Assembly (NCBI GenBank): GCA_964636885.1
Contig: CAZWVA010000001.1
Coordinates: 52,228-114,862, forward strand
Length of the DNA: 62,635 nt
Direction of reading: 5' to 3'
From: an uncultured Spirochaetia bacterium
Lineage (GTDB): Bacteria; Desulfobacterota_D; UBA1144; Nemesobacterales; CSP1-2
Part shown: positions 7,699-52,099 of the stretch, piece after piece
Layout: every line of letters starts with the position of its first letter
Position numbering within the stretch: position 1 is the first letter of the stretch
The notes under the pieces: model-generated
What the model was told of the DNA's origin: nothing
Database searches by the model: none
Seen by the model: the letters and a program-made list of their open reading frames with translations, nothing else
Made by a program: the position numbers and the translations under genes

Positions 7699-9216
7699 CT
7701 ATTCCTTTATCTCCACACCGCTTGCCTGTATAATCGTTCCCCTTGCGCGTTCAAGCCTGGCAAGGGCGATGTTATAAGCCGTAACCGCCCTTATCTCCTG
7801 CGTCCTTGCATCAACGAGGTCCCTTTGTGCCTCTATGACGTCTCTGGTTGTTCCGATTCCCACCTTCAGCCTTTCCTCCTGATTCCTTACCACCTCTTCT
7901 GCAAGCTCTACGGAGGTTTTCGCCGCTTCTATGCTCCTTAGGCTGTTCTGGATCTCCCTTATGGCGTTCCTTACGTCGAGCGTAATGTCGTCTGTAACCT
8001 TCTTGTATGAAATGACACTCCTATCGAGGTCGGCTGAGGCTTTTACGTAGTTCCCTTTGGCCGTCCAGTTGAATATCGGTAGACTGAATACCCCTAAGAC
8101 CTGCCAGGTTGGAAAATCGCCGTTGAATATGCTCCTAAAGGCGTCTGAGGCGCTGTCAAATCGATCTGAGATTGGCCGTTGGGGAATGCCATCTCCGAAT
8201 ATCACACGATTGGGGTTCTCACTGCCGCCAAGACCCTGAAGGTTTAGTATCCCCTGAATGGATAGACTGGGGAGCCTCTGATTTGAAAAAAAGCGCTTTT
8301 GCGTTTCCTTATTCCTTACATCGAGCTTTGCCTGCTCTATCTCCGGTCTCCTTTCAAGGGCTTCCTGAAGGACCTCGCTTTCGTTAAACGACTTAAGGAC
8401 TTCCGTCGGCTTGTCGGTTAAGACGATCCGCTCCGTGAGGGGGATCACGAGTATGTTTTTGAGGTTATCCTCCAAAGCCCTAAGGGTATTTTCGGCATTG
8501 ATCACATCTACCTCCCTTTTTGCTACCTCCGATTTCGCCTCTGTGACCGAGACCGGAGGGAGTACCCCTACCTCTACCTGAATCTCGTTTCTCCTTTGAA
8601 GGTCCTTTGCGAGTTCGAGTGCGGTTTTCTGGTTCTCAAGGTCTTGCCGTGCGGCTACGACGAGCCAGTAGGCCTCTTCGACGTTTAAAAGGGTATCGGA
8701 GATGGTTGTTTCAAGCTCCTTTATCGATATTTCACTTGATCTTTTCGCTACCGTTATGGGAGTTAGGTTTACATCGAGTCCAAAGTTCCTGAGGAGTTCC
8801 TGTCCGATACTGAAGCTAAGTGTTGTAAACCAGCTGGGGCTTAGTGCCTCAACCGGGGAGTTTGTGGTTGTTCTTGTCACGGAGAAATTGAGGAGGTTAT
8901 AAAACGTCCCTGTTGGGAGTGTCCCAGTTATGCCGCTTGAGGCGTTGAACCCCTTGCTCTCAATAGAGCCACTCGAGATAAATGTGCTTGTCGTGGGGTC
9001 TTTAGCGTCTATATAGTATGAGCTCAGGCTTAAGACCGGATCGAATATCCCTTTCTGGGTCTGTATGTCCCCACGGGATATCTCGACGTTCTTTCTTACT
9101 ATCTGTATGTCCCTGTTGTTCTCAAGGGCGATCCTCTTTGCGTCCTGAAGGGAGAGCATGAGGGTGTCTTGTGCTCCTATTAAGGAAAGAAACACCAAAA
9201 ATATCGTTCCGGTCAT
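7699..9216 (-). CDS. TolC family outer membrane efflux protein
   Basis: Signal peptide, two OEP repeats, ALENNRDI and DVIEAQRDL..A....A..AYNIALARLERA motifs. Confidence 0.85.
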   Translation of the reverse strand: MTGTIFLVFLSLIGAQDTLMLSLQDAKRIALENNRDIQIVRKNVEISRGDIQTQKGIFDPVLSLSSYYIDAKDPTTSTFISSGSIESKGFNASSGITGTLPTGTFYNLLNFSVTRTTTNSPVEALSPSWFTTLSFSIGQELLRNFGLDVNLTPITVAKRSSEISIKELETTISDTLLNVEEAYWLVVAARQDLENQKTALELAKDLQRRNEIQVEVGVLPPVSVTEAKSEVAKREVDVINAENTLRALEDNLKNILVIPLTERIVLTDKPTEVLKSFNESEVLQEALERRPEIEQAKLDVRNKETQKRFFSNQRLPSLSIQGILNLQGLGGSENPNRVIFGDGIPQRPISDRFDSASDAFRSIFNGDFPTWQVLGVFSLPIFNWTAKGNYVKASADLDRSVISYKKVTDDITLDVRNAIREIQNSLRSIEAAKTSVELAEEVVRNQEERLKVGIGTTRDVIEAQRDLVDARTQEIRAVTAYNIALARLERARGTIIQASGVEIKE

Positions 9217-36693: not shown

Positions 36694-37170
36694 ATGAAGG
36701 TAGACCCTTTTGAAAAGATCGCTATTTTTGTTGGTGGCGTGCTTCTGGTCGCCTTTCTCATAGCGATAGTCTATGCCAACTTTGGTTGGGGTATAAAGAT
36801 CCCCTCATGTGAAGCGGATACGAAGCCCTTTACAAAGGGGGCCTTCATTGAGAGCGGTCCACGGTCCTACGAGGTGCACATATTGACCAAGATGTGGTAT
36901 TTCGATATGGGGGATAACAGGAATGAAATCACCATTCCCGTTGGCTCAAGGGTAACCTTCTTTGTTACGAGCGGTGATGTCATACACGGTGTTAAGATTC
37001 CAAGCAAGAACATAAACATGATGGCCATCCCTGGAGTGGTCGGTAGACTGGAAACCACATTCGATAAGCCCGGGGAGTACATGGTTATCTGCCATGAGTA
37101 CTGTGGAATAGGACACCAGGGTATGTATGGGAAGGTAAGGGTCACCGAAGAGGTGGCCACAGGTAGGTGA
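36694..37170 (+). CDS. cbaB: ba3-type (family B) cytochrome c oxidase subunit II
   Basis: DVIHG and CHEYCGIGHQGM CuA ligands, one N-terminal TM. Confidence 0.9.
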   Translation: MKVDPFEKIAIFVGGVLLVAFLIAIVYANFGWGIKIPSCEADTKPFTKGAFIESGPRSYEVHILTKMWYFDMGDNRNEITIPVGSRVTFFVTSGDVIHGVKIPSKNINMMAIPGVVGRLETTFDKPGEYMVICHEYCGIGHQGMYGKVRVTEEVATGR

Positions 37171-37196
37171 TGGTATGGTCTTCAAGGAGGGAAGCC

Positions 37197-38831
37197 ATGG
37201 ACAGAATAAGGTCTTTGACTCTCTGGCATTGGTATATAGGATTTGCGGCTTTATTCCTCGGCCTGTTTTTTGGCTTGAGACAGTCTCTAGCCAGAGCTGG
37301 TATCCTGTCTAACTATGATTACTATCAGGGGCTAACCCTCCACGGCGTGCTAAATGCCCTGGTTTTTACGATCTTCTTCATAGTTGGGTTCCTCTATCTA
37401 ACGACTGAGAAATCCCTGAAAAGACCCCTTAAGACCTACGGGCTTGCCTGGTTAGGCTTCTGGGTCATTCTCATAGGCACCGTTTTGGCGGCGGTGCCGA
37501 TACTGACAAAGAGGGCAAGCGTCCTTTATACCTTCTACCCACCTCTTATGGCCCATCCGAGCTTCTATATAGGGCTTGCATTGGTGGTTGTAGGCTCTTG
37601 GATCTCTGCCCTTGTGGTTTTACTTACCTACTTGGATTGGAGAAAAGAGAACCCAGGTATGAGAATCCCGCTTATGTTTGTGGCAACCGCTACCACCTAC
37701 ATCCTCTGGTTTATCGCGACAATAGGTGTGGCAATCGAGGTTCTTTTTCTCCTTATACCGTGGTCTTTAGGATGGGTGAAGGAAACGAATCCCCTCCTTG
37801 CGAGGACCCTCTTTTGGTACTTCGGCCATCCTCTGGTTTACTTCTGGCTTATGCCCGCCTACCTGACCTGGTATACCATAATGCCTAGGGTAGCGGGCGG
37901 TAAGCTCTACAGCGACCCCATGGCTAGGCTTGCCTTTGTACTCTTTATAGTGTTTTCCATGCCTGTAGGAACCCATCATCAGTTTGCCGACCCAGGTATA
38001 AGTACGGATTGGAAAGCCCTCCATACCTTCTTCACCTTCCTTGTAACCTTTCCGAGTTTATTGACGGCTTTTAATCTAGCAGCCTCTCTCGAGTATGCGG
38101 GAAAAAGCAACGGTGGAAGCGGTCTCTTCGGCTGGTGGACAAGGTTACCATACGGTGATCCGGTCTTTGCCTGTTTCATCTCGGCCATGGTCCTTTTTAT
38201 ATTCGGTGGGATAAGTGGCATAGTAAACGCCTCTTATAACGTGAATATGGTCGTCCACAACACCTCTTTCGTATTCGGCCATTTCCACCTTACAATAGGT
38301 TCGGCGGTCTCCCTTACGTTCTTTGGACTCGTCTACCTTATCCTTCCTCAGCTATCTAGGAGGGAGCTCTTGAGCAAGAGACTCGCTTTGTTCCAGGCCT
38401 ATACCTGGCTTTTAGGCATGCTCATATTTTCCTTTGCAAATATGGCCGCTGGAAGGATGGGGGTTCCTAGGAGAACCGATCTTGGGATCGCCACGTACCA
38501 TTTCCCACCTATTGTGGATCACCTTGAAAAGGTATCGGCCGTAGGTGGTGTTATACTCTATATGAGTTCCCTGATCTTCTATGTGGTGTTTGTTGGAACC
38601 CTTTTCTTTGCGAAGAAAAAAGAGGAGGACTCTATTACCCTACCCATAACAGAGGCCTATCAAACGGAGGCGGAGGCCCCTAGGATATTCGATAGGTGGA
38701 GGGTGTGGATAGGAATTGCGGTCGTTCTCATACTTATAGCATACGCACCTGTGTTACAACAGGTCCTCGGCGTCTCGCCGTTTGCTTCCCCAGGATACGA
38801 TCCAAAATTACCGGTGCCTATACCGAGATAG
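37197..38831 (+). CDS. cbaA: ba3-type (family B) cytochrome c oxidase subunit I; likely start ATG at 37197
   Basis: YYQGLTLHGVLN, FWYFGHPLVYFW, HHQFADPG, VHNT..V.GHFHLT, GVPRR. Confidence 0.92.
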   Translation: MDRIRSLTLWHWYIGFAALFLGLFFGLRQSLARAGILSNYDYYQGLTLHGVLNALVFTIFFIVGFLYLTTEKSLKRPLKTYGLAWLGFWVILIGTVLAAVPILTKRASVLYTFYPPLMAHPSFYIGLALVVVGSWISALVVLLTYLDWRKENPGMRIPLMFVATATTYILWFIATIGVAIEVLFLLIPWSLGWVKETNPLLARTLFWYFGHPLVYFWLMPAYLTWYTIMPRVAGGKLYSDPMARLAFVLFIVFSMPVGTHHQFADPGISTDWKALHTFFTFLVTFPSLLTAFNLAASLEYAGKSNGGSGLFGWWTRLPYGDPVFACFISAMVLFIFGGISGIVNASYNVNMVVHNTSFVFGHFHLTIGSAVSLTFFGLVYLILPQLSRRELLSKRLALFQAYTWLLGMLIFSFANMAAGRMGVPRRTDLGIATYHFPPIVDHLEKVSAVGGVILYMSSLIFYVVFVGTLFFAKKKEEDSITLPITEAYQTEAEAPRIFDRWRVWIGIAVVLILIAYAPVLQQVLGVSPFASPGYDPKLPVPIPR

Positions 38832-39479: not shown

Positions 39480-40440
39480 TTTATACACGGCTCTACCCAT
39501 AGCGTAACGTCTCGGAATCTCCTTTCGATTCAACGGATATAATTTTACGACACCTGGCTTTTTCCCCAACCCCTGGAAAAGGAGCGTTGACTTCATAACG
39601 ACCGGTGAAAGACACGGGGTTATCGAGGTCTTTTATCCCGAGGAGAAGGGGTTGGAGCTTGAGGTCATCTTTTAGTGGAAGAGGTAAGCCTTATCAACTC
39701 TCTATCGGAGATGGTCTCTTCCTTCCTCGATCGCAGGGTTATGGAGGATGTCCTTAAAGAGAACCTCGTTAGACTAACAAAAAGGAGGCCGTTACGAATC
39801 TATAATCAGCACGGTTACTCGTAGCGTCCATCAGTCTCTGGATCTTCAAGAGGTGCTTGAAAACGCCGTTAAAGCGATTAGCGAGAACGTGGATGGAGTG
39901 GAGAAGTCTCAATCTACCTGGTTGTTGAGAGAGAAGAGGGGGAAGCCGAGGTACGTTTATTGGCCCCGCCGGAAGGGAAGAGGGGTGGCAATAGGGAACA
40001 CCCAGGCACTGGAAGCGCTGAGAAGAAGCGAAGGGAGGTATAGCGACCTCGTTAACGAGGTAAACGGCGGCCTCTTTACGATTGACGATCTCCCAGTTGG
40101 ACGGGGAGGGCTTATACTCGTAATCGACGACGAGATCTCGGTTAGGGAGATTACGAGGGTAACGTTGGAAACATACGGGTATAGGGTAGTTACTGCAAGC
40201 GACGGGGCAGAGACAATAACGTTATATGCGAAAATAAAATAAGGGGAAGGTAAGGGCTGTCATACTCGATATATGGTGCCTATTATGGTGGACGGCTCCG
40301 TTTGCACCAAAGCGCTTAAGAGGATCGACCCTGGGGTAAATATCATAGCGGTAAGCGGGTTTAAGGAGAACGTTGGGTACGCACTGGTTACCGCTACAGA
40401 AGCGGACGCCTTTTTACAGACATACGATCGGCCGTTGTAA
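39480..40440 (+). pseudogene. Collapsed hybrid sensor kinase/response regulator remnant (GAF plus receiver fragments)
   Basis: Frameshifted pieces: TVTRSVHQSLDLQEVLENAV (GAF), LILVIDDEISVREITRVTLETYGYRVVTASDG and MVP..DG....ALKRIDPGVNIIAVSG (REC); no kinase core. Confidence 0.7.
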
Positions 40441-41211: not shown

Positions 41212-42021
41212 TCAAATATCCTTTCTCTCGAAGATAAGGATAGCCATAAAGAGTGGGATAAAAAGCCAAGCGAGAAGAACCACCAGAGAAATTACCATGC
41301 CCATGGGGCTTCCAAATGTCCTACCCAACACCGCTCCCGCAGGCCCTACGAGTGCCGCGCTTCCAAGCGACATGATAAAAGTCGTTCTTACCAAATCGGC
41401 GGGGTTTAGAAAGAGAAGGGCTATGATTATACCTCCAAAGGCGAGGGTTAGGCCTACCAGGATAAAATCGTATATGATTACAAACCAGAACCAGAGCATG
41501 AAACTTATCCCAATAGACCTTGCCTTCTCTCCTAAGGCTATTGAGACGAGGGAGGCGATTGAGAGGAAGATGAGGGAGAGTAAAACGGAGAGAAGAACAA
41601 GGAACAGGAAGTGTGAGCTCTCCTCGTAGCCTATGTTTAAACCGAGGATAAAACCTGCCGAGATAAAACCAAGAAGAAGGGTCGCCGTAACGGCCGTTCC
41701 GAGGCCGAGATACTTTCCCAACACAGCCTCTTTTCGACTAATGGGTTGAATTAAGAGCAGCTCCCACGACTCCCTTGCCCCGGTGAAGCTATTTGCCCCC
41801 ATTATAAGCGCCATAAGGGGAACGAGGATTAGGACTAGGTTTAGCAGGCTTACGGCGGGTTTCAAGAACGTGTTACCCCCGCCTCCTATGATTCCAGAAT
41901 AGGACACGGTTGAGTCGAGAAGGATAAAAAGAAGGGCAAAAAAGAAAAACCACCTGTTTCTTATGGCGTCCAGAAACTCCCTTTTGGCGATTACGTAAAC
42001 GATTCTAATATCGGTATCCAT
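41212..42021 (-). CDS. nosY: NosY ABC permease
   Basis: IAKREFLDAIRNRW, WELLLIQPISR....GKYLG, LNPADLVR; in nos cluster. Confidence 0.9.
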   Translation of the reverse strand: MDTDIRIVYVIAKREFLDAIRNRWFFFFALLFILLDSTVSYSGIIGGGGNTFLKPAVSLLNLVLILVPLMALIMGANSFTGARESWELLLIQPISRKEAVLGKYLGLGTAVTATLLLGFISAGFILGLNIGYEESSHFLFLVLLSVLLSLIFLSIASLVSIALGEKARSIGISFMLWFWFVIIYDFILVGLTLAFGGIIIALLFLNPADLVRTTFIMSLGSAALVGPAGAVLGRTFGSPMGMVISLVVLLAWLFIPLFMAILIFERKDI

Positions 42022-42460
42022 GCCTTTCCTTCCAGTCCATCTTAAGAAGGGATTCGAGACGCATGGCCTTGCCTCCGGTTTTATCCGCCGTTTCTTTTGC
42101 CTTGATCGGGTCCTTAAACGCTATGATCCCGTATCCCATGGGCGTGTGGATCTCAGGGGAGATAACGAAGTGGGCTTCCTCTCCCTTTATCCACGTTGCG
42201 CCACCAAAATCCATTACCCAGAAGCGGGTTTTCTCGGGGCTAAGATTATTGGCTTGGGCGTAGGCAAACATGCACCCTATGTCATCGAATTTATGGGCTT
42301 TTCCCTTATCTATGATCTCCGCGGAATAACGAAAGTCACTTATAATCATTCGACAGTTTTCACACATGTCTATTCCCCTATTTATGGGAACGGGGGAGTC
42401 ATTTGATCGACAACCCGCTATAAGTAACAGGGAAAAAAGAGGGATCGCTATCCTATAAAT
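42005..42460 (-). CDS. nosL: NosL copper-chaperone lipoprotein; probable ATT start at 42460
   Basis: C..C.M.I, FDDIGC, HTPMGYG motifs; the frame extends upstream to (I)YRIAIPLFSLLLIAG-C lipobox with no ATG/GTG/TTG. Confidence 0.88.
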   Translation of the reverse strand: MYRIAIPLFSLLLIAGCRSNDSPVPINRGIDMCENCRMIISDFRYSAEIIDKGKAHKFDDIGCMFAYAQANNLSPEKTRFWVMDFGGATWIKGEEAHFVISPEIHTPMGYGIIAFKDPIKAKETADKTGGKAMRLESLLKMDWKERHGYRY

Positions 42461-43361
42461 CGGAATCTCCCTCCGTGTATTTGATGAATATCTCTTCGAG
42501 TGAAGGGTCTTCTGTCCAGAAATCCAATATGTTGAACCCGTTTTCCAACAGGGCTTTAATCACCCTTGTCTTATCCCTAGGTGATATAAGACACCTTAGG
42601 TTCCTTCCTCTAATCTCCGCGTCCTTTGCTCCGAGATCCTCGACGAGTTTAATCCCCATTGGGCTCGGATTCTCGAGTACCACCTCTAGAATCGAGCCCA
42701 TCTTAAGCCTGGTCCTTAGTCCTTCCAGTGTATCGAGTGCAACGATCCTTCCCCGAACCAGTATGGCTATCCTCTCGGCGAGCTCCTCTATGTAGCTCAG
42801 TATATGGGATGAGAGGAGGATGGTTTTCCCCCTTCTCTTTTCTTCCCTTATGAGCCTTTTAAAGGCGATCCTCCCCTCCGGGTCCAGGCTGATCGTGGGC
42901 TCGTCCAGTATGAGAATAGGAGGGTCGGAGATAATCGCCTGTGCAAGGGCCAGCCTCTGGATCATTCCACCCGAGAGCGCTCCCACCTTCTTATTCCTCT
43001 GTTCCAGGATCCCCACGGCTCTAAGTACGTCTTCCGGTCTTTTGTTATTCGTGCCCCTTAGCTCGCTATAGAATTCTATGACCTCAAACACGCTGAGGTT
43101 TTCATGAAAGGAGATCCTCTGAGGAACGTATCCTATCCTCTTTTTTATCTCCTTCTGGTTCTTGCTTACCTCTATATTATCAACGAGTATCCTCCCTTCG
43201 GTAGGATGTATAAGGCCTAGAACGGCATTTAGAAGCGTGGTCTTCCCCGCCCCGTTTGGACCGACTATGGCAAAGGTTTCGCCTCTTTGCACCTCAAGAG
43301 AGACCCCTTGGAGCGCCCTTGTGTTTCTATAATCCTTTACGAGGTTCTCAATCCTTATCAT
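42453..43361 (-). CDS. nosF: NosF ABC ATPase
   Basis: GPNGAGKT, LSGGMIQRL, LILDEP; between nosD and nosL. Confidence 0.9.
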   Translation of the reverse strand: MIRIENLVKDYRNTRALQGVSLEVQRGETFAIVGPNGAGKTTLLNAVLGLIHPTEGRILVDNIEVSKNQKEIKKRIGYVPQRISFHENLSVFEVIEFYSELRGTNNKRPEDVLRAVGILEQRNKKVGALSGGMIQRLALAQAIISDPPILILDEPTISLDPEGRIAFKRLIREEKRRGKTILLSSHILSYIEELAERIAILVRGRIVALDTLEGLRTRLKMGSILEVVLENPSPMGIKLVEDLGAKDAEIRGRNLRCLISPRDKTRVIKALLENGFNILDFWTEDPSLEEIFIKYTEGDSDL

Positions 43362-44658
43362 TTTTCGTCCCTTCGTTAGTCCAAACGGGGTTCATTAGAG
43401 GATAAGGGTCTTCGATTTCAACGGGGTTTAGTACGGGAATAATCCTCTCTGCAAACTCAAGTGCCTTCATGCCGGGGCTTTCCATAAAGACCGTGAGGTC
43501 GGGGTAGCGCTTCATCAGATATGAAAGGAGCTTCACCGGTTTGTAGGGGATGTCTCCGATTCCGTCTCCATCTAGATCGTATCCGTTATACCCCTTGTAG
43601 TCGCTCCAGTAGTTTCCGGTTGAGTCCTTAAAAAACCGGTTTGTCGTGCGGTCTGTATCGGTCATCACCTGATACGTGTTGTCTAGAAAGTCGTTCCCAT
43701 ATATCGTATTATCGTTGGAGCTGGAAAACAGGTCAATTGCCCAACCGTTTTGTAAAAACACGTTTCCGGTAAAAACGTTCCTATTGGCATCGTCCATAAA
43801 GACCCCCACCGTATTATTGGATATTATGTTTCCTCTGGCAAGTGTGTCGTTTAGGGATTTAAGAAGCATACCGAACCCGTTTGGACCGAGGTTGTTTTTA
43901 AAGGCGTTTTTTCTAAGAACGATGTTTTTAGAATACATAATCGCGCTTCCGGTTCCGTTTCTCTCAAATGTGTTTTCCTCGAATGTGTTGTCATCCGAGT
44001 ACATATAGTGTAGACCGTATCTCACGTTTCTCTCACAGTGATTCCCTCTTATGGAGTTGCCGGGTGAGAACTCTACGTATATCCCATCCCTGTGCTTTAC
44101 TATGTGGTTTCCCTCGATCGTGTTATTTGGCGACTTCCAGAGGTGAATCCCGTTTCCGTTTTCCTCTTCTGTCGTATAATCCGCTCTTCCATAAGACGTG
44201 TTATTCCTGATCGTGTTGCCGGAAGATGAGTAGAGGTATACGCCTATTATAACGTCCTCGAGTTTGTTCTCTTCGATTATGACCCCTCTTGAATTTGCTA
44301 TCTTTATTCCGCTTTCGTCTTTTAGAAGATCGCCCCCACTTCTTCTTATAGTAAAGCCTTTAATCAAAACCCCGTCAGCCTCTATTCTTATGACGTCGCC
44401 CTTATATCCGCCGTCGATTACGGGTTGATTTTCCCCGATGAGAAACACCTTTTTATCTAGGACTATATTCTCCCTGTACACTCCTTCCTTAACGACTATC
44501 GTGTCGCCTTCGGCTGAGTTCCGGAGTGCTTCTGTGATTGAGGAATAGGCCGATCCTTTTCCTACGGTGATCTCCCCGGCAATTGATTCTGCCCGGAGAG
44601 CGATAAGGGAGATTAAGCCCGTAATTACTATAATCGCTTCTGCCTTGATTCGAGCCAT
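43348..44658 (-). CDS. nosD: Nitrous oxide reductase maturation protein
   Basis: Beta-helix repeats, GNGIHLW, RYGLHYMYSDDN, GNYWSDY.GYDLDGDGIGDIPY.P. Confidence 0.93.
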   Translation of the reverse strand: MARIKAEAIIVITGLISLIALRAESIAGEITVGKGSAYSSITEALRNSAEGDTIVVKEGVYRENIVLDKKVFLIGENQPVIDGGYKGDVIRIEADGVLIKGFTIRRSGGDLLKDESGIKIANSRGVIIEENKLEDVIIGVYLYSSSGNTIRNNTSYGRADYTTEEENGNGIHLWKSPNNTIEGNHIVKHRDGIYVEFSPGNSIRGNHCERNVRYGLHYMYSDDNTFEENTFERNGTGSAIMYSKNIVLRKNAFKNNLGPNGFGMLLKSLNDTLARGNIISNNTVGVFMDDANRNVFTGNVFLQNGWAIDLFSSSNDNTIYGNDFLDNTYQVMTDTDRTTNRFFKDSTGNYWSDYKGYNGYDLDGDGIGDIPYKPVKLLSYLMKRYPDLTVFMESPGMKALEFAERIIPVLNPVEIEDPYPLMNPVWTNEGTKNDKD

Positions 44659-45242
44659 ACTATTATCGGTCCGAGTATAGCCGCAAAACCCATGAGTATT
44701 GCACCGGAGCCCGGAAGGCTTATAACCTTAAAGTTTGCGATCTGTTTTACCCCGATGATGTTCGGTGTAAAAGGATCCATTTTTATCGCGGCTTGTGGGT
44801 TGAGGTTGTGGCCATACTCATAGAGCCATCTGTAGAAGTCCCCTAGCATGAAGACCCCAAACAGGATAAATAGGATCCATCCTATAGTGGCGAAATGCCA
44901 TCTTCCTACGATTGCAGAGAGGAGAGCAAGTACACTAAAGGCGATGATCGTAAAGGGAAGCCACTTAAACTCCTTGAATTCGTCGGGTCTTATCTCGTGC
45001 ATCCCTATATAGTGGTTAAGGGCGTTAATTATCTTGGGGGTATCGTTTGTTAGGTCGAGTTCCGGGTTATACTCCGTCAATTTGTTTGCGTATATGTACA
45101 TCCTTACACCTTTCGGATACTGTGGGGCTACAAGCGTTACCGTCCATATTGGAAGGACTATGGCGGGTATAATAGAAAGAGCCGCAATAACTATAAGAAT
45201 CCGAGCCTGCTTTGATAAGCGACCTGAAAGGACGTTGACCAT
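44628..45242 (-). CDS. nosB: NosB-like membrane protein of clade II nos clusters
   Basis: APQYPKG..M.I, INALNHYIGM, WLYEYGHNL...A.IK. Confidence 0.8.
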   Translation of the reverse strand: MVNVLSGRLSKQARILIVIAALSIIPAIVLPIWTVTLVAPQYPKGVRMYIYANKLTEYNPELDLTNDTPKIINALNHYIGMHEIRPDEFKEFKWLPFTIIAFSVLALLSAIVGRWHFATIGWILFILFGVFMLGDFYRWLYEYGHNLNPQAAIKMDPFTPNIIGVKQIANFKVISLPGSGAILMGFAAILGPIIVWLESRQKRL

Positions 45243-45264
45243 TTTCTTATGATACCTCCCTCAA

Positions 45265-45314
45265 TAAAAAATTGAAGAGGGGAAGGGCGAAAAGAAAAAG
45301 GCCTCCCCTCCTCT
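45265..45314 (-). terminator. Terminator-like hairpin between nosZ and nosB
   Basis: Minus strand GAGGAGGGGAGGC...GCCCTTCCCCTCTT followed by a T-run. Confidence 0.55.
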
Positions 45315-45320
45315 ATTGGT

Positions 45321-47153
45321 TTACTTGGAGCCTTTAGAGGCTACTTCGATATAGCCCTGCATCTCTTGGTGGAGGGCCGAACAGAAGTTTGTGCAGTAAA
45401 AGGGATAGATACCCGGCTTCTCTGCGATCCACTTAACCGTTTTCGTTTCCCCTGGATCTACCTGCATATCTATATTTGAGAAGTTGATCCCAAATCCATG
45501 CGTTATGTCGTTATCCTGTTCGATGTTTGTAACGTGGAAGTACACGGTGTCTCCCTCTTCAACCTTGATGATATCGGGTGTGAAGTGGCTTCTTATGGCG
45601 ATCATGTAAACATCCACCTTATTCCCGTTTCTTTCAATGCGTGCCTGCTCTGGGCTCTTTATCATATTTGGGTCCTTGTTCTCCTCCAGCGGGTATATCT
45701 TCTGGGGGTTTACGAGTCTTGCGTTGATTATCTGACCGTAGTGTGGCTCAACCTGGGTAGGAAAGTCAAGAAGCATTTCCATCTTCTTGCCCGTTATATC
45801 GATGAGCTGTGCGCTCTCCGGGTAGGAGGGGCCAACAGGAAGGTATCTGTCCTTTGCCAGTTTATTCAAGGCGAGCATGTACTTACCCTCTGGGTGCACC
45901 GTATCTCCATGGGCGACGGCGAGGTGCCCTATGGCATAGTAGACCGGGATCTTATCCACGACTTCCCATGTCCCAAGCTTCCACTTGGCAATCGCAGAAT
46001 CTACAAAAAGGGATGTGTATGCGTATCCTTTGTCGTCAAACTGTGTATGAAGTGGACCAAGTCCTACAGGAACCTCGGCGACCCTAACGGATTCGTATTT
46101 GATTATCGGTATCCCCATGGCATCTCCGTCGAAGTCACCTTTCTTTATGGCCTCCTGCATCTTCTCAAAGCTGTGTACGACTGCTACAGCGGCGAGTTTC
46201 CCTCCACCGACTATATACTTCCCGTCAGGGGAGACATCTGCGCCGTGCGGGCTTTTCGGGGTGGGAAGAAGATACACTATACCCTTTACCTCTTGCGGGT
46301 CAATGACCTTGACTCCGTTAATCTCCTTGTATTTCCCCTCTTTAATCGCCTCTTCCGCGGCCTTCCAGTTTACGGCGGCAATAAAGTCTCTGTCTTTCTG
46401 GGAGGCCCCGACCTCTAGTTCCTTATACGCCATCTCGGTGTTGTAAGAGCTAAAGAACGCCCAGCCGTAGCTTACCTGCTTCCCGGCATCGGCCAGGTCG
46501 TAATCGAAGGGCGGCATCAGGATCTGAAAGGCGTTTTCCATGTGCCCTGTATTCTTATCCACACTTACAAAGGCGATTACACCCTTAAAGTTCTCCTTGT
46601 AGCTTTCTATTGAAACATCGCGGTTCGGTACGGGAACCGAAAACCTGGTTGCACCGACCACGTATTCCGTGTTTGGTGTGACAAATGGGCTTGCGTGGTT
46701 TCCAGACACATTGGGAACTTGTATTATCTCCTCTGTGGTGAATGTCTTAAGATTTATGCGGGCTATTCGTGCGCTGTTATTGTCGTTTATAAAAAGCCAT
46801 CTCCCGTCGTAATCTCCGTTTGTCTCCGAGAGGGCGGGGTGATGGGCGTCGCCCCAGGTGTAGCCACCCAGTATGCTTTTACTCTCTTCATCGATGCCCC
46901 ATCCTATGGCTGGATCGGGTGTAAAAACTGGTATCACCCTTAGTAGCCTTCCAGACGGAAGTCCATAGACCGCTATCTGACCGGAATGGCCACCTGAGAG
47001 AAAGGCATAGTAGCTATCGTACTTTCCCGGAGGGACATAGACCTTTTCCGCCGGGCTCTCCTTTCCTTTACAGGCAAAGAGAAGCCCGATAAAGACAAAA
47101 AGGACGGAGAGACATAAAAAGCTCGCTCTGTTTCTAAGACTCATAGATCTCAT
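45321..47153 (-). CDS. nosZ: Sec-dependent (clade II) nitrous oxide reductase with lipoprotein-type signal
   Basis: WGDAHH, GNH, KSPHG, GLGPLH, EPH CuZ ligands; CTNFCSALHQEM CuA; no twin-Arg, LFA-C lipobox. Confidence 0.95.
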   Translation of the reverse strand: MRSMSLRNRASFLCLSVLFVFIGLLFACKGKESPAEKVYVPPGKYDSYYAFLSGGHSGQIAVYGLPSGRLLRVIPVFTPDPAIGWGIDEESKSILGGYTWGDAHHPALSETNGDYDGRWLFINDNNSARIARINLKTFTTEEIIQVPNVSGNHASPFVTPNTEYVVGATRFSVPVPNRDVSIESYKENFKGVIAFVSVDKNTGHMENAFQILMPPFDYDLADAGKQVSYGWAFFSSYNTEMAYKELEVGASQKDRDFIAAVNWKAAEEAIKEGKYKEINGVKVIDPQEVKGIVYLLPTPKSPHGADVSPDGKYIVGGGKLAAVAVVHSFEKMQEAIKKGDFDGDAMGIPIIKYESVRVAEVPVGLGPLHTQFDDKGYAYTSLFVDSAIAKWKLGTWEVVDKIPVYYAIGHLAVAHGDTVHPEGKYMLALNKLAKDRYLPVGPSYPESAQLIDITGKKMEMLLDFPTQVEPHYGQIINARLVNPQKIYPLEENKDPNMIKSPEQARIERNGNKVDVYMIAIRSHFTPDIIKVEEGDTVYFHVTNIEQDNDITHGFGINFSNIDMQVDPGETKTVKWIAEKPGIYPFYCTNFCSALHQEMQGYIEVASKGSK

Positions 47154-47181
47154 CTTATTTACCTCCTTTTTATGCAGTTAA

Positions 47182-47655
47182 CTAGTCTTTTTCTTTATGT
47201 TGTTCGGTTTCCCCTTTTGCTTGGGAATCCTTCATCCTAAAATACATGATGATTGCCTGGGCTTCTTCAGGAGTGACGTTCTGATTGGGCATCCTTACCA
47301 TATATGTTGCGAGTAGCTCTCTGGCTATAGGATCCTTTTCGAGCATGACCTCTGGGTGAAGGATCTGATTTGCAATCCAATCGAGATTCCGTCTCTCCGT
47401 AACGCCGGCAAGATCAGGGCCTGTGCGTTTTCCCTGCCCGATTGTATGACATGCCGAACAGCCCTTGGTCTGAAATAGCTCTTCCCCTTTCTCTGCGAGT
47501 TCATGGTCGATTGGAGGGGGTGCCTTCGCCTCTTCCTCATGGGTTATCTCTTGCTTTGCCTCACCGACTTCTGTTCCCTCTTCTTCCTTGCCCTTACAGG
47601 ATATCAGAATTACTAGGAGAACCGCAACGGCTAACGTTAGGCCCTTTCTTCTCAA
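47182..47655 (-). CDS. Monoheme cytochrome c lipoprotein upstream of nosZ
   Basis: LIS-C lipobox, CSACH, GPDLAGVT, MPNQN. Confidence 0.88.
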   Translation of the reverse strand: MRRKGLTLAVAVLLVILISCKGKEEEGTEVGEAKQEITHEEEAKAPPPIDHELAEKGEELFQTKGCSACHTIGQGKRTGPDLAGVTERRNLDWIANQILHPEVMLEKDPIARELLATYMVRMPNQNVTPEEAQAIIMYFRMKDSQAKGETEQHKEKD

Positions 47656-47808: not shown

Positions 47809-48414
47809 TTATGCCTCTAAAACCCTAATCGCTGAGTTTGCAACTTCGGCTATGGTTCTACCATAGTCAAGGCCAATGAGACCGCTATTAAAGAAGAGAA
47901 TCGTTCTTGTTATCATTCCTATTACCATCGCCGCTCCCAGGTTCTCATCTATCTTTCTGAAATCTCCTTTTTCGATTCCAAGGCGTATTACTTCCACAAA
48001 GATATCTTTGGGTTTCGGCTTCTCTTCTGGAATCCTTCCCAGCTCTGTAAGGTGTGCTTCCATTATGTATGAGTATGCCTTAGGCTGGTTCTTTGCAAAA
48101 TCAAAAAAGTTTTGAATTAGAACCCTTAGCTTCTCCTTTGGATCGGTGTAGTTGCTTGTGTTTTCTACTAGTTTTTCTCTAAACGTGTCCATATTGCTGA
48201 TAAAAAGCTTAAGGGCAAGGTCATCTTTGCTTTTAAAGTGTTTGTATATGGTTCCCTCTGCTATACCGGCTTTTCTTGCTATCTCCCTCGTTGTAGTGCC
48301 TTTTATCCCCTTCTTTATGAACAGGCTAAGGGCGATATTAAGTATCCTATTCTTTGAATCCAAGAGGCTTCTCTTCTTTCTAATGGCTCTTCTGGCAAGT
48401 GAGTGATTACCCAT
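47809..48414 (-). CDS. TetR/AcrR family regulator (alternative TTG start at 48363)
   Basis: ILNIALSLFIKKGIKGTTTREIARKAGIAEGTIYKHFKSKDDL HTH. Confidence 0.9.
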   Translation of the reverse strand: MGNHSLARRAIRKKRSLLDSKNRILNIALSLFIKKGIKGTTTREIARKAGIAEGTIYKHFKSKDDLALKLFISNMDTFREKLVENTSNYTDPKEKLRVLIQNFFDFAKNQPKAYSYIMEAHLTELGRIPEEKPKPKDIFVEVIRLGIEKGDFRKIDENLGAAMVIGMITRTILFFNSGLIGLDYGRTIAEVANSAIRVLEA

Positions 48415-48515: not shown

Positions 48516-48605
48516 GAATAATATTAAGTGTTTGCAACGACTGCCCTCTTGGGGGTACTGTTTTTTTGATAGAATTGGGGTTAATACCATTAGGAGGGTA
48601 TAGCT

Positions 48606-48888
48606 ATGAAAAAGGGCGTTATAGAGATCTCATTCATTCTAATATTGTCCGTTGTGTTTCTCGGAGTCTTCTAGGTTGCTAAACCCGGAAATCCAGAGAC
48701 CCCTAGGGATGAAAAAAGCCCTGCTGCTCCCGTTGCAAATGTCACCATTGTCCTATACGGACCGGTATTGCTGAGGGACGCCTCGTATTTATCGGTGAGG
48801 GGGGAGGCATTGATGGAAAGGTAAATCCGGATTTAAAGGTAAAGCTCGGGGATGTGGTTCAAGTGATCCTCATCAATGGTGAGGGATG
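48606..48888 (+). pseudogene. nirK: 5' remnant of a copper nitrite reductase with N-terminal cupredoxin domain
   Basis: RBS and ATG at 48606, signal peptide, TAG at 48672, 2-nt frameshift near 48755, then RTGIAEGRLVFIGEGGGIDGKVNPDLKVKLGDVVQVILINGEG, cut off at ~48888. Confidence 0.7.
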
Positions 48889-49982
48889 TTTGGGTTTTTT
48901 ATTGGCTTAGCCTCTCTCCTGCTCAAATATACGGTATTTCCGAGAAAGAGAAGAATGGCAATGGCGTTAAGTAGACCTCCCCACTTGCGTCCTAATGGCC
49001 ACTCTAGTAGATCCCCCGTTATCCGAAGGATCAAAGAGATGTGGAGTAGAGCGAGGTGTGCATAAAAGGGTAGATGAAGGGTTAAAAATCTCGGTAAACC
49101 CAGAACTGCCGGAAATATAACGGGTGCGTGTGCGAATATCATCGAAAATACAAACCCGATAAAGATCGAATGTAATATGGCATCGTAGTAAAACCCCGAT
49201 GTCATGCCTCCAAGGAAAACCTCCAACAGCCCACCTAATCCGAGCCACACGTAACCTATGATTAGGCTCAGGGCTATAAATCGGCTTAACCCTTCTTGGT
49301 TCACGGTACGTCGCGCGATATCAAAGCGTAAGAGCCATAGGGCCAAGGCGACCATTCCTATACCCGTAACCTGCACTCCAGCGCTAAAGGCTCTAGTTAC
49401 CAGGATGACACCGAGTATAAAGAGAGAGGCGGCAAGGATAAAAGCCGCTTTACCCCTATTGGATATTTGAAGCATACGGCTGATCTCCAGTCTCTCTCCG
49501 GAGATGGTTAATACCAAGAATCCGATCCACCATATAGCGACCTTATAGAAAGGGAACCCCAAGAGCCAAAGCCCGTTTCCTATGAGCCAGAAGGAGGCCC
49601 CGATCGTGATGACAACCGAGTAAAGGGTAAGGTGGTTATAAAAGATAACCGCTAGAAGGAATACCAAGCCGGCGCTACTTAGGGTCATAAGGGTTATTCC
49701 AAATGGGTCGGGTGTACCCGCTACTAATGCCAGAGCGCCCACTCCACTTAGAAGGGGAACCGCATACGCCCATCTGAGGTTTGAGGCCACCGCCCGCTCA
49801 AGACCTATAAGGGTTCCTAAGAAGCCAGAGACCATAAGGGGGCCGTGGAAAGAAGGTAAGCTTAGCCTGAATAAAGGCAACTCCAATCCGAGGCGAAAAA
49901 GCCCCATCCAGAGCCCGATGAGAAGGGCAAAGCCTCCGAGGACCATTATGAGTAGGCGAAACCCTATTTTCTTCTCCTCCAT
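48873..49982 (-). CDS. NnrS-like polytopic membrane protein
   Basis: HGPLMVSGFLGTLIGLERA, LTISGERLE, YDAILHSIFIGFVFSMIFAHAP. Confidence 0.65.
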   Translation of the reverse strand: MEEKKIGFRLLIMVLGGFALLIGLWMGLFRLGLELPLFRLSLPSFHGPLMVSGFLGTLIGLERAVASNLRWAYAVPLLSGVGALALVAGTPDPFGITLMTLSSAGLVFLLAVIFYNHLTLYSVVITIGASFWLIGNGLWLLGFPFYKVAIWWIGFLVLTISGERLEISRMLQISNRGKAAFILAASLFILGVILVTRAFSAGVQVTGIGMVALALWLLRFDIARRTVNQEGLSRFIALSLIIGYVWLGLGGLLEVFLGGMTSGFYYDAILHSIFIGFVFSMIFAHAPVIFPAVLGLPRFLTLHLPFYAHLALLHISLILRITGDLLEWPLGRKWGGLLNAIAILLFLGNTVYLSRREAKPIKNPNIPHH

Positions 49983-51670: not shown

Positions 51671-52099
51671 CTACGTTTGTTTTCCCACGGGTCGCACCCG
51701 TGACCACATATTATACACAAAGAGAAACCCCGCTACTGCCTGCGACAGGGCACCTAAGACGACCAACAAATCAAATACCCTTGAATCGGTGTAAGAAGTG
51801 ATAACCTCACAGATAAAGCGGGTTGTTGTTCCTAATGTGAGAAACCAATAGATCCCTTCCGCCAGTCTGGGGCTGTAATCGGTTTCTTCCCTTGGGCGGG
51901 GGAACATCCAGATAGATACACCCATTATGAGGGACATCAAAAAACCAAAGAGCAGTATATGGACATGTGCGGTGATAAACTGGGGATGGGGCCAGCTACC
52001 CAGGATGTGTTTTCTCACGATCATATATAGGCCAAGGAGCAGGCCAACCATGAAGAAGATGAAACCCGTCTTTATGTACCGCCTTGCTAGTTCGGGCAT
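51671..52099 (-). CDS. Small heme-copper-oxidase-subunit-I-like / NnrS-related membrane protein
   Basis: AHVHILLFGF....IMGV..WMFPR, four TMs. Confidence 0.65.
   Translation of the reverse strand: MPELARRYIKTGFIFFMVGLLLGLYMIVRKHILGSWPHPQFITAHVHILLFGFLMSLIMGVSIWMFPRPREETDYSPRLAEGIYWFLTLGTTTRFICEVITSYTDSRVFDLLVVLGALSQAVAGFLFVYNMWSRVRPVGKQT

Follow-up and report, generated by a model that had tools for sequence, protein, structure and literature searches.

A likely remnant of a three-domain nirK gene beside an intact clade II nos cluster

We analysed a window of 62,635 nucleotides, the whole stretch of DNA considered here, which carries an intact clade II (Sec-type) nos cluster on the minus strand. 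The cluster (41212..47655) comprises the genes for a cytochrome c, nosZ, a 204-aa membrane protein, nosD, nosF, nosL and nosY, and is headed by the gene of a TetR-family regulator (47809..48414, minus strand) that is 88% identical in the nearest sister genome. The NosZ scores 951 bits against the Sec-type model TIGR04246 (cut-off 625), and the cluster test assigned the locus to clade II. To the right of the interval that follows the TetR gene, a 369-aa membrane protein, a cupin, CopD, a DUF488 protein, a 121-aa open reading frame (ORF) and a 142-aa COX1-like ORF are all encoded on the minus strand. Genes located farther out encode a sirohaem reductase that resembles NirA, oxidases of the cbb3 and ba3 types, and copper-handling functions; nor, nirS and nar are all absent from the 62 kb. 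Public records label the lineage as Thermodesulfobacteriota or Candidatus Dadabacteria.

Between the TetR gene, from which it diverges, and the gene of the 369-aa membrane protein, on which it converges, we identified what is very probably a remnant of nirK on the plus strand (48606-48886), a stub of ~280 bases that corresponds to codons 1-93 of ~470-490. It is preceded by upstream, 5′ untranslated DNA (48528..48605; homology to the sister contig L091 stops at 48527), which includes an AGGAGG ribosome-binding site (RBS; 48592-48597) 8 nt 5′ of the ATG at 48606. Codons 1-22 (48606..48671) encode a signal peptide with a hydrophobic N-terminus, MKKGVIEISFILILSVVFLGVF, that aligns from Met1 with the intact NirK of the relative L178. 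The next codon is a TAG nonsense codon (48672..48674), resulting from a G to A change at 48673; it is TGG in contigs L001-L006 and TAG in L089 and L090. The linker and the start of the cupredoxin domain continue in the original frame (VAKPGNPETPRDEKSPAAPVANVTIV.., 48675..48753), as judged from the alignment with L178 NirK, and beyond the TAG this frame reads VAKPGNPETPRDEKSPAAPVANVTIVL. A tandem duplication of TA (TATA, 48754..48757), where a single TA is found in relatives and in outgroup nirK genes, adds 2 nt and produces a +2 frameshift. The remaining cupredoxin segment lies in the shifted frame (RTGIAEGRLVFIGEGGGIDGKVNPDLKVKLGDVVQVILINGEG, 48758..48886) and matches 6tfd, 2dv6, the protein P0125 and the nirK of L097. 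At the junction (48886..48887) the nirK homology stops and the antisense of the membrane-protein gene tail starts; read-through gives CLGFLLA and a TAG (48887..48910, with the stop at 48908-48910), which is antisense to the 3′ end of the membrane-protein ORF and not derived from nirK. The ORF listing has no plus-strand ORF longer than 40 aa over the stub. No gene is called there in the window, and the 100-aa ORF called at this place in L001-L006 has no family match. The RBS, ATG, signal peptide, nonsense codon and TA-duplication frameshift described in the first-pass annotation are all present in the sequence. That annotation ran from 48606 to 48888; its start is correct, and its end has to be moved to 48886, where the GEG codons finish.

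Aligned with intact nirK genes, the stub DNA loses its match immediately after AATGGTGAGGG, the point at which the intact genes proceed with GCTGAGCATGAT (A-E-H-D). The stub ends at GEG, and intact relatives read GEG-AE-H-D, so that the first T1Cu ligand, a His, lies two codons further on; the proposal that the gene was cut just before this Cu-ligand His is borne out. The His of AEHD and the downstream C-x4-H-x4-M make up the standard cupredoxin ligand set. The T1CuN ligands of the tethered domain (His...Cys-x4-His-x4-Met) are not found in the stub, from which the Cys/His/Met segment is absent, nor are the T1Cu and T2Cu ligands of the catalytic core (e.g. HSVDFH). Its frame is interrupted by the TAG (48672-48674), the +2 frameshift (48754-48757) and the truncation at 48886. 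When full-length NirKs were compared with the window by tblastn, the only match was at 48755-48886, with no NirK core anywhere else, and neither tblastn nor low-stringency blastn recovered the missing part of nirK from the window or the sister contig.

For homology searches, the stub was repaired by reading through the stop and removing the extra TA, which yields a 93-aa peptide. This peptide has only two significant matches in the PDB, 6tfd (E 8e-15) and 2dv6 (E 1e-14), and aligns to their N-terminal residues ~11-77. The two structures are the enzymes of Hyphomicrobium denitrificans 1NES1 and A3151, and represent the two solved N-terminal cupredoxin-tethered CuNiRs (PMC7201279). Their signal peptide, linker and first half of the tethered cupredoxin match the stub residue for residue, with the shared motif LRTGIAEGRMVYIGVGGDIDxxVNPxLxVxEGExVQxxLxNGEG. 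In contrast to the Hyphomicrobium enzymes, to which it is ~55% identical, the stub has 93 codons left, a frame that is broken twice, and none of the T1CuN ligands, the linker or the catalytic T1Cu/T2Cu core.

Full-length matches to the Hyphomicrobium enzymes are encoded by the stub's intact relatives L098 and L178. The nirK of L098 (Ga0209810_1000903) is intact at 494 aa, matches 6tfd over its full length (E 1e-186), scores 378 bits against the NirK equivalog model TIGR02376 (cut-off 296 bits) and is 69% identical to the stub over 62 residues. L178 (GTDB representative contig CAYMEO010000019.1) encodes an intact NirK of 469 aa that scores 365 bits against the same model. The stub aligns to it from Met1 to GEG, signal peptide included, with 57 of 97 residues identical (59%; E 2e-31). 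In nucleotide sequence, the stub and the nirK of L097 share 80% identity over 130 nt. P0001, the 100-aa ORF of L001-L006, has no match to TIGR02376. Searches of Pfam and NCBIfam with the repaired stub gave no match; this blank is uninformative either way, because the NirK models in those collections cover the catalytic core only.

A HMMER search of 1.84 billion proteins returned 325 matches at E<=1e-3, 44 of them at E<=1e-10; together with the PDB matches, this is a similarity that greatly exceeds chance. A word-indexed protein search with the 70-aa stub returned two proteins only. An exact-pattern scan of the GTDB representatives, among which the source genome is not a species representative, found no copy of the stub. 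Forty-eight of the 149 best matches fit the NirK equivalog model and 58 fit generic cupredoxin models only. The closest are P0125 and P0281, which share 40 of 51 domain residues with the stub, every other match sharing at most 34 of 51. P0282, a member of the same clade that is 71% identical to P0125, runs on into the NirK linker SISRDPTDLPPPIGKRPP, and this nearest clade reaches the core with HSVDFH. The copy of P0125 in L096 also runs on into NirK sequence, past one in-frame stop. Among the 80 metagenome loci with the most stub-like domain, a NirK core follows ~200 nt downstream in the same orientation at 75; the remaining five either run into the end of their contig or are themselves truncated.

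Domains of this type are not confined to NirK, and the domain alone is no proof of nirK. The stub might instead derive from the gene of a free-standing small blue-copper protein of ~150 aa. At least 15 seemingly complete proteins of 146-198 aa were found in a representative search, each consisting of the signal peptide, the linker and the domain and ending directly after GHRQAGMEGxLIV, and the 58 matches limited to generic cupredoxin models count in favour of such an origin. These proteins are, however, more distant from the stub (~30 of 51 residues or less) and mostly carry NGDG..HD, whereas the nearest clade (P0125, P0281, P0282, L098 and L178) is fused to NirK, as are the 75 loci above. The stub is, moreover, colinear with L178 NirK from the start codon through the signal peptide, and is not a complete ~150-aa protein closer to free-standing cupredoxins than to any NirK. 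We consider a free-standing origin very unlikely. With a signal peptide, a linker and a cupredoxin containing TGIAEGR...NGEG, and with NirKs as its nearest homologues, the stub falls in the HdNiR class, and we conclude with high confidence that it is what remains, at the 5′ end, of a dead three-domain nirK whose N-terminus carried a tethered cupredoxin. This identity and class had been proposed in the first-pass annotation; the PDB matches, the NirK-fused nearest clade and the L178 alignment agree with it, and the non-NirK best matches that would have spoken against it did not appear, the closest homologues all being true NirKs.

Some of the related loci are irregular in their own right. The nirK closest to the stub, in L096 (5039-5863; GCA_037025185.1), has an in-frame stop at codon 144 (VIGK*ASS), a position occupied by Gly in L098 and P0282. 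Either this nirK is decaying as well, or the stop is a sequencing error. In the soil-metagenome contigs L160 (~2440-2640) and L170 (~2590-2790), cupredoxin-nirK homology is lost after AEHDIVFAD, and in a third such contig, L176 (~8000-8300), it is fused after AGDF to permease-like sequence. Stubs of nirK, or else chimeric joins, may occur fairly often.

At least eight further contigs (L001-L006, L089 and L090) share the 48886/48887 junction. In L089 (JGI 3300035183) and L090 (Logan SRR11727984), the TAG and the extra TA are identical to those of the window. In L001-L006, which are Logan contigs from six different sequencing runs, the locus is 98.6% identical and has the same junction, with TGG in place of TAG and a single TA; these contigs hold the unbroken 100-aa ORF P0001, which ends ...INGEGCLGFLLA. 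The six are identical to one another and therefore represent one population. Outgroup nirK genes also have one TA at the duplication site. As the junction is common to both populations and the TAG and extra TA occur in one only, the truncation is ancestral, and the other two lesions are later and private. The nonsense codon and TA duplication noted in the first reading are thus real and derived.

Frameshifted genes do occur in metagenome assemblies, and many of the NirK matches in the databases are visibly garbled; the truncation, stop and frameshift could accordingly be sequencing or assembly artefacts that conceal an intact gene. Against this, the junction recurs in the eight or more further contigs, which were assembled separately by JGI and Logan, L089 and L090 show the TAG and the extra TA again, and no NirK core lies in the window. 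The probability of such an artefact is negligible, and assembly error does not account for the lesions. Between the two populations, the stub has diverged by 2.0%, compared with 1.6-2.1% for intergenic DNA and 0.25-2.1% for neighbouring genes. This divergence is neutral-like, as in intergenic DNA, and lies at the top of the range of the neighbouring genes. A truncation followed by a TGG-to-TAG change and a TA duplication is the pattern predicted by neutral decay.

The gene that converges on the stub (48873..49982, minus strand) encodes a 369-aa membrane protein with 12-13 helices (AlphaFold2 pLDDT 85). The ORF ends ...NPNIPHH-TGA with its stop at 48875-48873, and the (I)PHH and TGA lie on antisense nirK DNA (48873-48886). 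Because the nirK homology reaches 48886 and the stop is at 48873-48875, the last 3-4 codons and the stop are necessarily new and were made by the fusion. The idea that this ORF now reads into the relic for its stop was therefore right, its TGA and last 3-4 codons being antisense nirK. The family comprises 7,625 homologues of ~360 aa, which vary in their C-terminal tails; the length of the window protein is normal for the family. Members were found in Nitrospira, Chloroflexota, Methylomirabilis, Binatia and others, and 119 of 120 listed homologues have no Pfam domain recorded. His46, His271, His285 and His314 are invariant.

The name NnrS-like, given to this ORF at first, did not fare as well. 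Searches of Pfam and NCBIfam with the ORF gave no match (E<=10 or E<=0.1), including none to NnrS, and hhalign against the genuine NnrS of L178 gave a probability of 25% (E 8e-4, 118 columns). Like NnrS (PF05940), the 369-aa protein spans the membrane several times, has conserved histidines and is in some cases encoded beside nirK, and there is a weak profile match around H271...HAP. Unlike NnrS, it has a predicted fold nearer to heme-copper oxidase subunit I and NO reductase (NOR): the AlphaFold2 model has TM scores of 0.63-0.69 to subunit I of the cbb3 oxidase and to NO reductases, which it resembles most closely. Any relation to NnrS is remote at best.

Within 1.5 kb of the 369-aa family gene at 80 loci, we counted cupin 15 times, the COX1-like 142-aa ORF 11 times, CopD 7 times and nirK 6 times. 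In L030, L036 and L084, a nirK of the stub's clade lies directly upstream of a member of this family, and in L096, L097, L098 and L099 nirK lies between a homologue of the 121-aa ORF and CopD. As nirK of the stub's clade is repeatedly found beside the 121-aa ORF, CopD and the 369-aa family, the set of genes around the stub is a recurrent companion of nirK. In a Methylomirabilis genome (L023, 6604-6725), tblastn gave a short match to the last ~40 residues of NirK, immediately upstream of a 369-aa family member; this match may be another nirK fragment.

Both L178 and L098, which have the nearest full-length genes, place nirK beside CopD; in L178, whose NosZ is 87% identical to that of the window, the intact nirK also adjoins the nos cluster, 1.1 kb upstream of nosZ. 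The L178 order on one strand is acetate kinase, COX1-142, TetR, hemerythrin, NnrS-DUF1858, a ScdA-type di-iron protein, hemerythrin, intact nirK, a 142-aa ORF, CopD, cytochrome c, nosZ and the rest of nos. This order indicates that intact nirK and NO-stress genes do adjoin nos in a relative. The L178 and L098 genes differ from the stub in being complete, in scoring above the NirK equivalog cut-off and in their gene order and orientation: the nirK of L178 shares its strand with nosZ, but the stub of the window points away from TetR-nosZ. The nearest sister genome (JGI Ga0137716_10001009, L007/L091) encodes flanking proteins that are 80-92% identical on both sides. Its DNA homology to the window stops sharply at 48527, coming from inside TetR, and at ~48917. 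In place of the 390-bp interval with the nirK stub, it has a 9.7-kb block (L007 11124-21116 / L091 1-8246) with genes for Rrf2, a cytochrome c, narGHJI and an MFS protein and two small ORFs (one of 95 aa and one, CMD-family, of 79 aa). This slot holds no trace of nirK in the sister, and in L092 it has a hemerythrin gene and no TetR. The block that stands in the place of the stub suggests a variable slot for N-oxide modules. No relative seen has an intact nirK in the exact slot and orientation of the window. Of the relatives compared for an intact nirK at the syntenic position, L178 has nirK adjoining nos, but in another orientation and order, and the sister has nar in the slot instead.

We propose that one ancestral deletion or rearrangement removed all of nirK beyond a point two codons ahead of the first copper ligand. 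The lost part would amount to at least 1.13 kb and comprise the remainder of the tethered domain, the linker and the entire catalytic core with its T1Cu and T2Cu sites. The same event would have joined the stub to the 3′ end of the convergent membrane-protein gene, which now ends with (I)PHH-TGA on antisense nirK. The truncated 100-codon ORF is still unbroken in one sampled population, and the lineage of the window later gained the TGG-to-TAG nonsense mutation and the tandem TA duplication. We infer that this very site was once occupied by a full-length nirK, whose loss deprived the cell of NirK-type nitrite reduction. Because the nirK of L178 is on the nosZ strand and in another gene order, a simple deletion in place is likewise a matter of inference.

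Alternatively, the stub could have been left behind by a larger rearrangement, or by a cassette exchange, at a variable slot that separates nos from the membrane-gene cluster, through inversion, illegitimate recombination or replacement of a neighbouring module, in which case full-length nirK may never have stood here in this orientation. The contents of the slot differ in every relative seen (the stub; Rrf2-nar-MFS; hemerythrin; the NnrS/ScdA/hemerythrin/nirK block), the position of nirK between the 121-aa-ORF homologue and CopD in L096-L099 is a different one, and the homology of the flanks to the sister ends abruptly at 48527 and ~48917, all of which would fit such an exchange. On the other hand, the stub retains its RBS, its start codon and 78 nt of private upstream DNA, as an in-place 3′ deletion would leave them, and no IS element, repeat or integrase was found near it in the window. 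We regard a rearrangement of this kind as possible, if rather unlikely. It is similarly only a tentative suggestion that the slot between the TetR/cytochrome c/nosZ cluster and the COX1-like/CopD/cupin/membrane clusters is a site of recurrent N-oxide-module exchange, with the stub as the scar of a swap. The modules swapped there would, just as tentatively, be nirK with NO-stress genes, narGHJI with Rrf2, or hemerythrin.

The 100-aa ORF is unbroken in six contigs and has an RBS and a signal peptide, and could in principle still encode a secreted peptide; a retained nirK promoter could likewise drive antisense transcription into the membrane-protein gene. However, the ORF is without all four copper ligands and half of the beta-sandwich, the lineage of the window has accumulated two knock-outs while the flanking genes are intact, and the six contigs are identical and count as one population. 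A scan for promoters and terminators around the stub gave no signal above shuffled controls. Residual function of either type is thus highly improbable. The stub is an ordinary pseudogene and an example of the modularity of denitrification, with no new element or mechanism, and it leaves the understanding of the NirK enzyme and of the denitrification pathway unchanged.

Genomes with nosZ and without a nitrite reductase are common and important as N2O sinks, and their origin by gene loss is usually deduced from presence/absence tables. Thirty percent of nosZ genomes lack nir, and these are mainly clade II (Graf et al. 2014, PMC4250227). Like such non-denitrifying N2O reducers, the window combines an intact clade II nos cluster with the absence of a functional nir; unlike them, it retains a physical nir remnant that is still visible, the reading here being that of the 62-kb window and of 10-kb flanks in relatives. 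It is plausible that the organism is a denitrifier turning into a non-denitrifying, N2O-only reducer. The loss is visible as a dated series, from intact nirK by nos, through a truncated and open ORF, to a truncated stub with a nonsense codon and a frameshift. Our literature search found no paper on nirK pseudogenes beside clade II nosZ. Short-read or primer surveys that target the N-terminal domain could count the stub as nirK.

Three further features of the window were considered. The ba3-type (B-family) oxidase pair, a CuA subunit and a 554-aa subunit I (36694-38831, plus strand), is flanked by cbb3 accessory genes and SCO1; in the sister contig L091, no gene separates DsbD_2 from SCO1. A role of the 554-aa COX1 with its CuA subunit as an NO reductase was ruled out, given matches to 7deg and 1ehk at E 1e-128 or better. 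The 142-aa COX1-like ORF (51671-52099, minus strand) matches only the first ~150 positions of COX1 and looks fragment-like. We nevertheless do not regard it as a second relic, as the ORF has the same length in at least five lineages, with identities of 86% in the sister, 68% in L097 and 70% in L178; its conservation suggests that it is probably a real small membrane protein and no relic. Finally, a response-regulator receiver domain (39853-40440, plus strand) is split into a 129-aa ORF (...DGAETITLYAKIK*) and a 55-aa ORF in another frame (MVPIMVDG...). Indels of 1 nt at 40230 and 40272 separate the two populations here, and the segment, of ~1.1 kb, is absent from the sister. The split response regulator is probably a second decaying gene.
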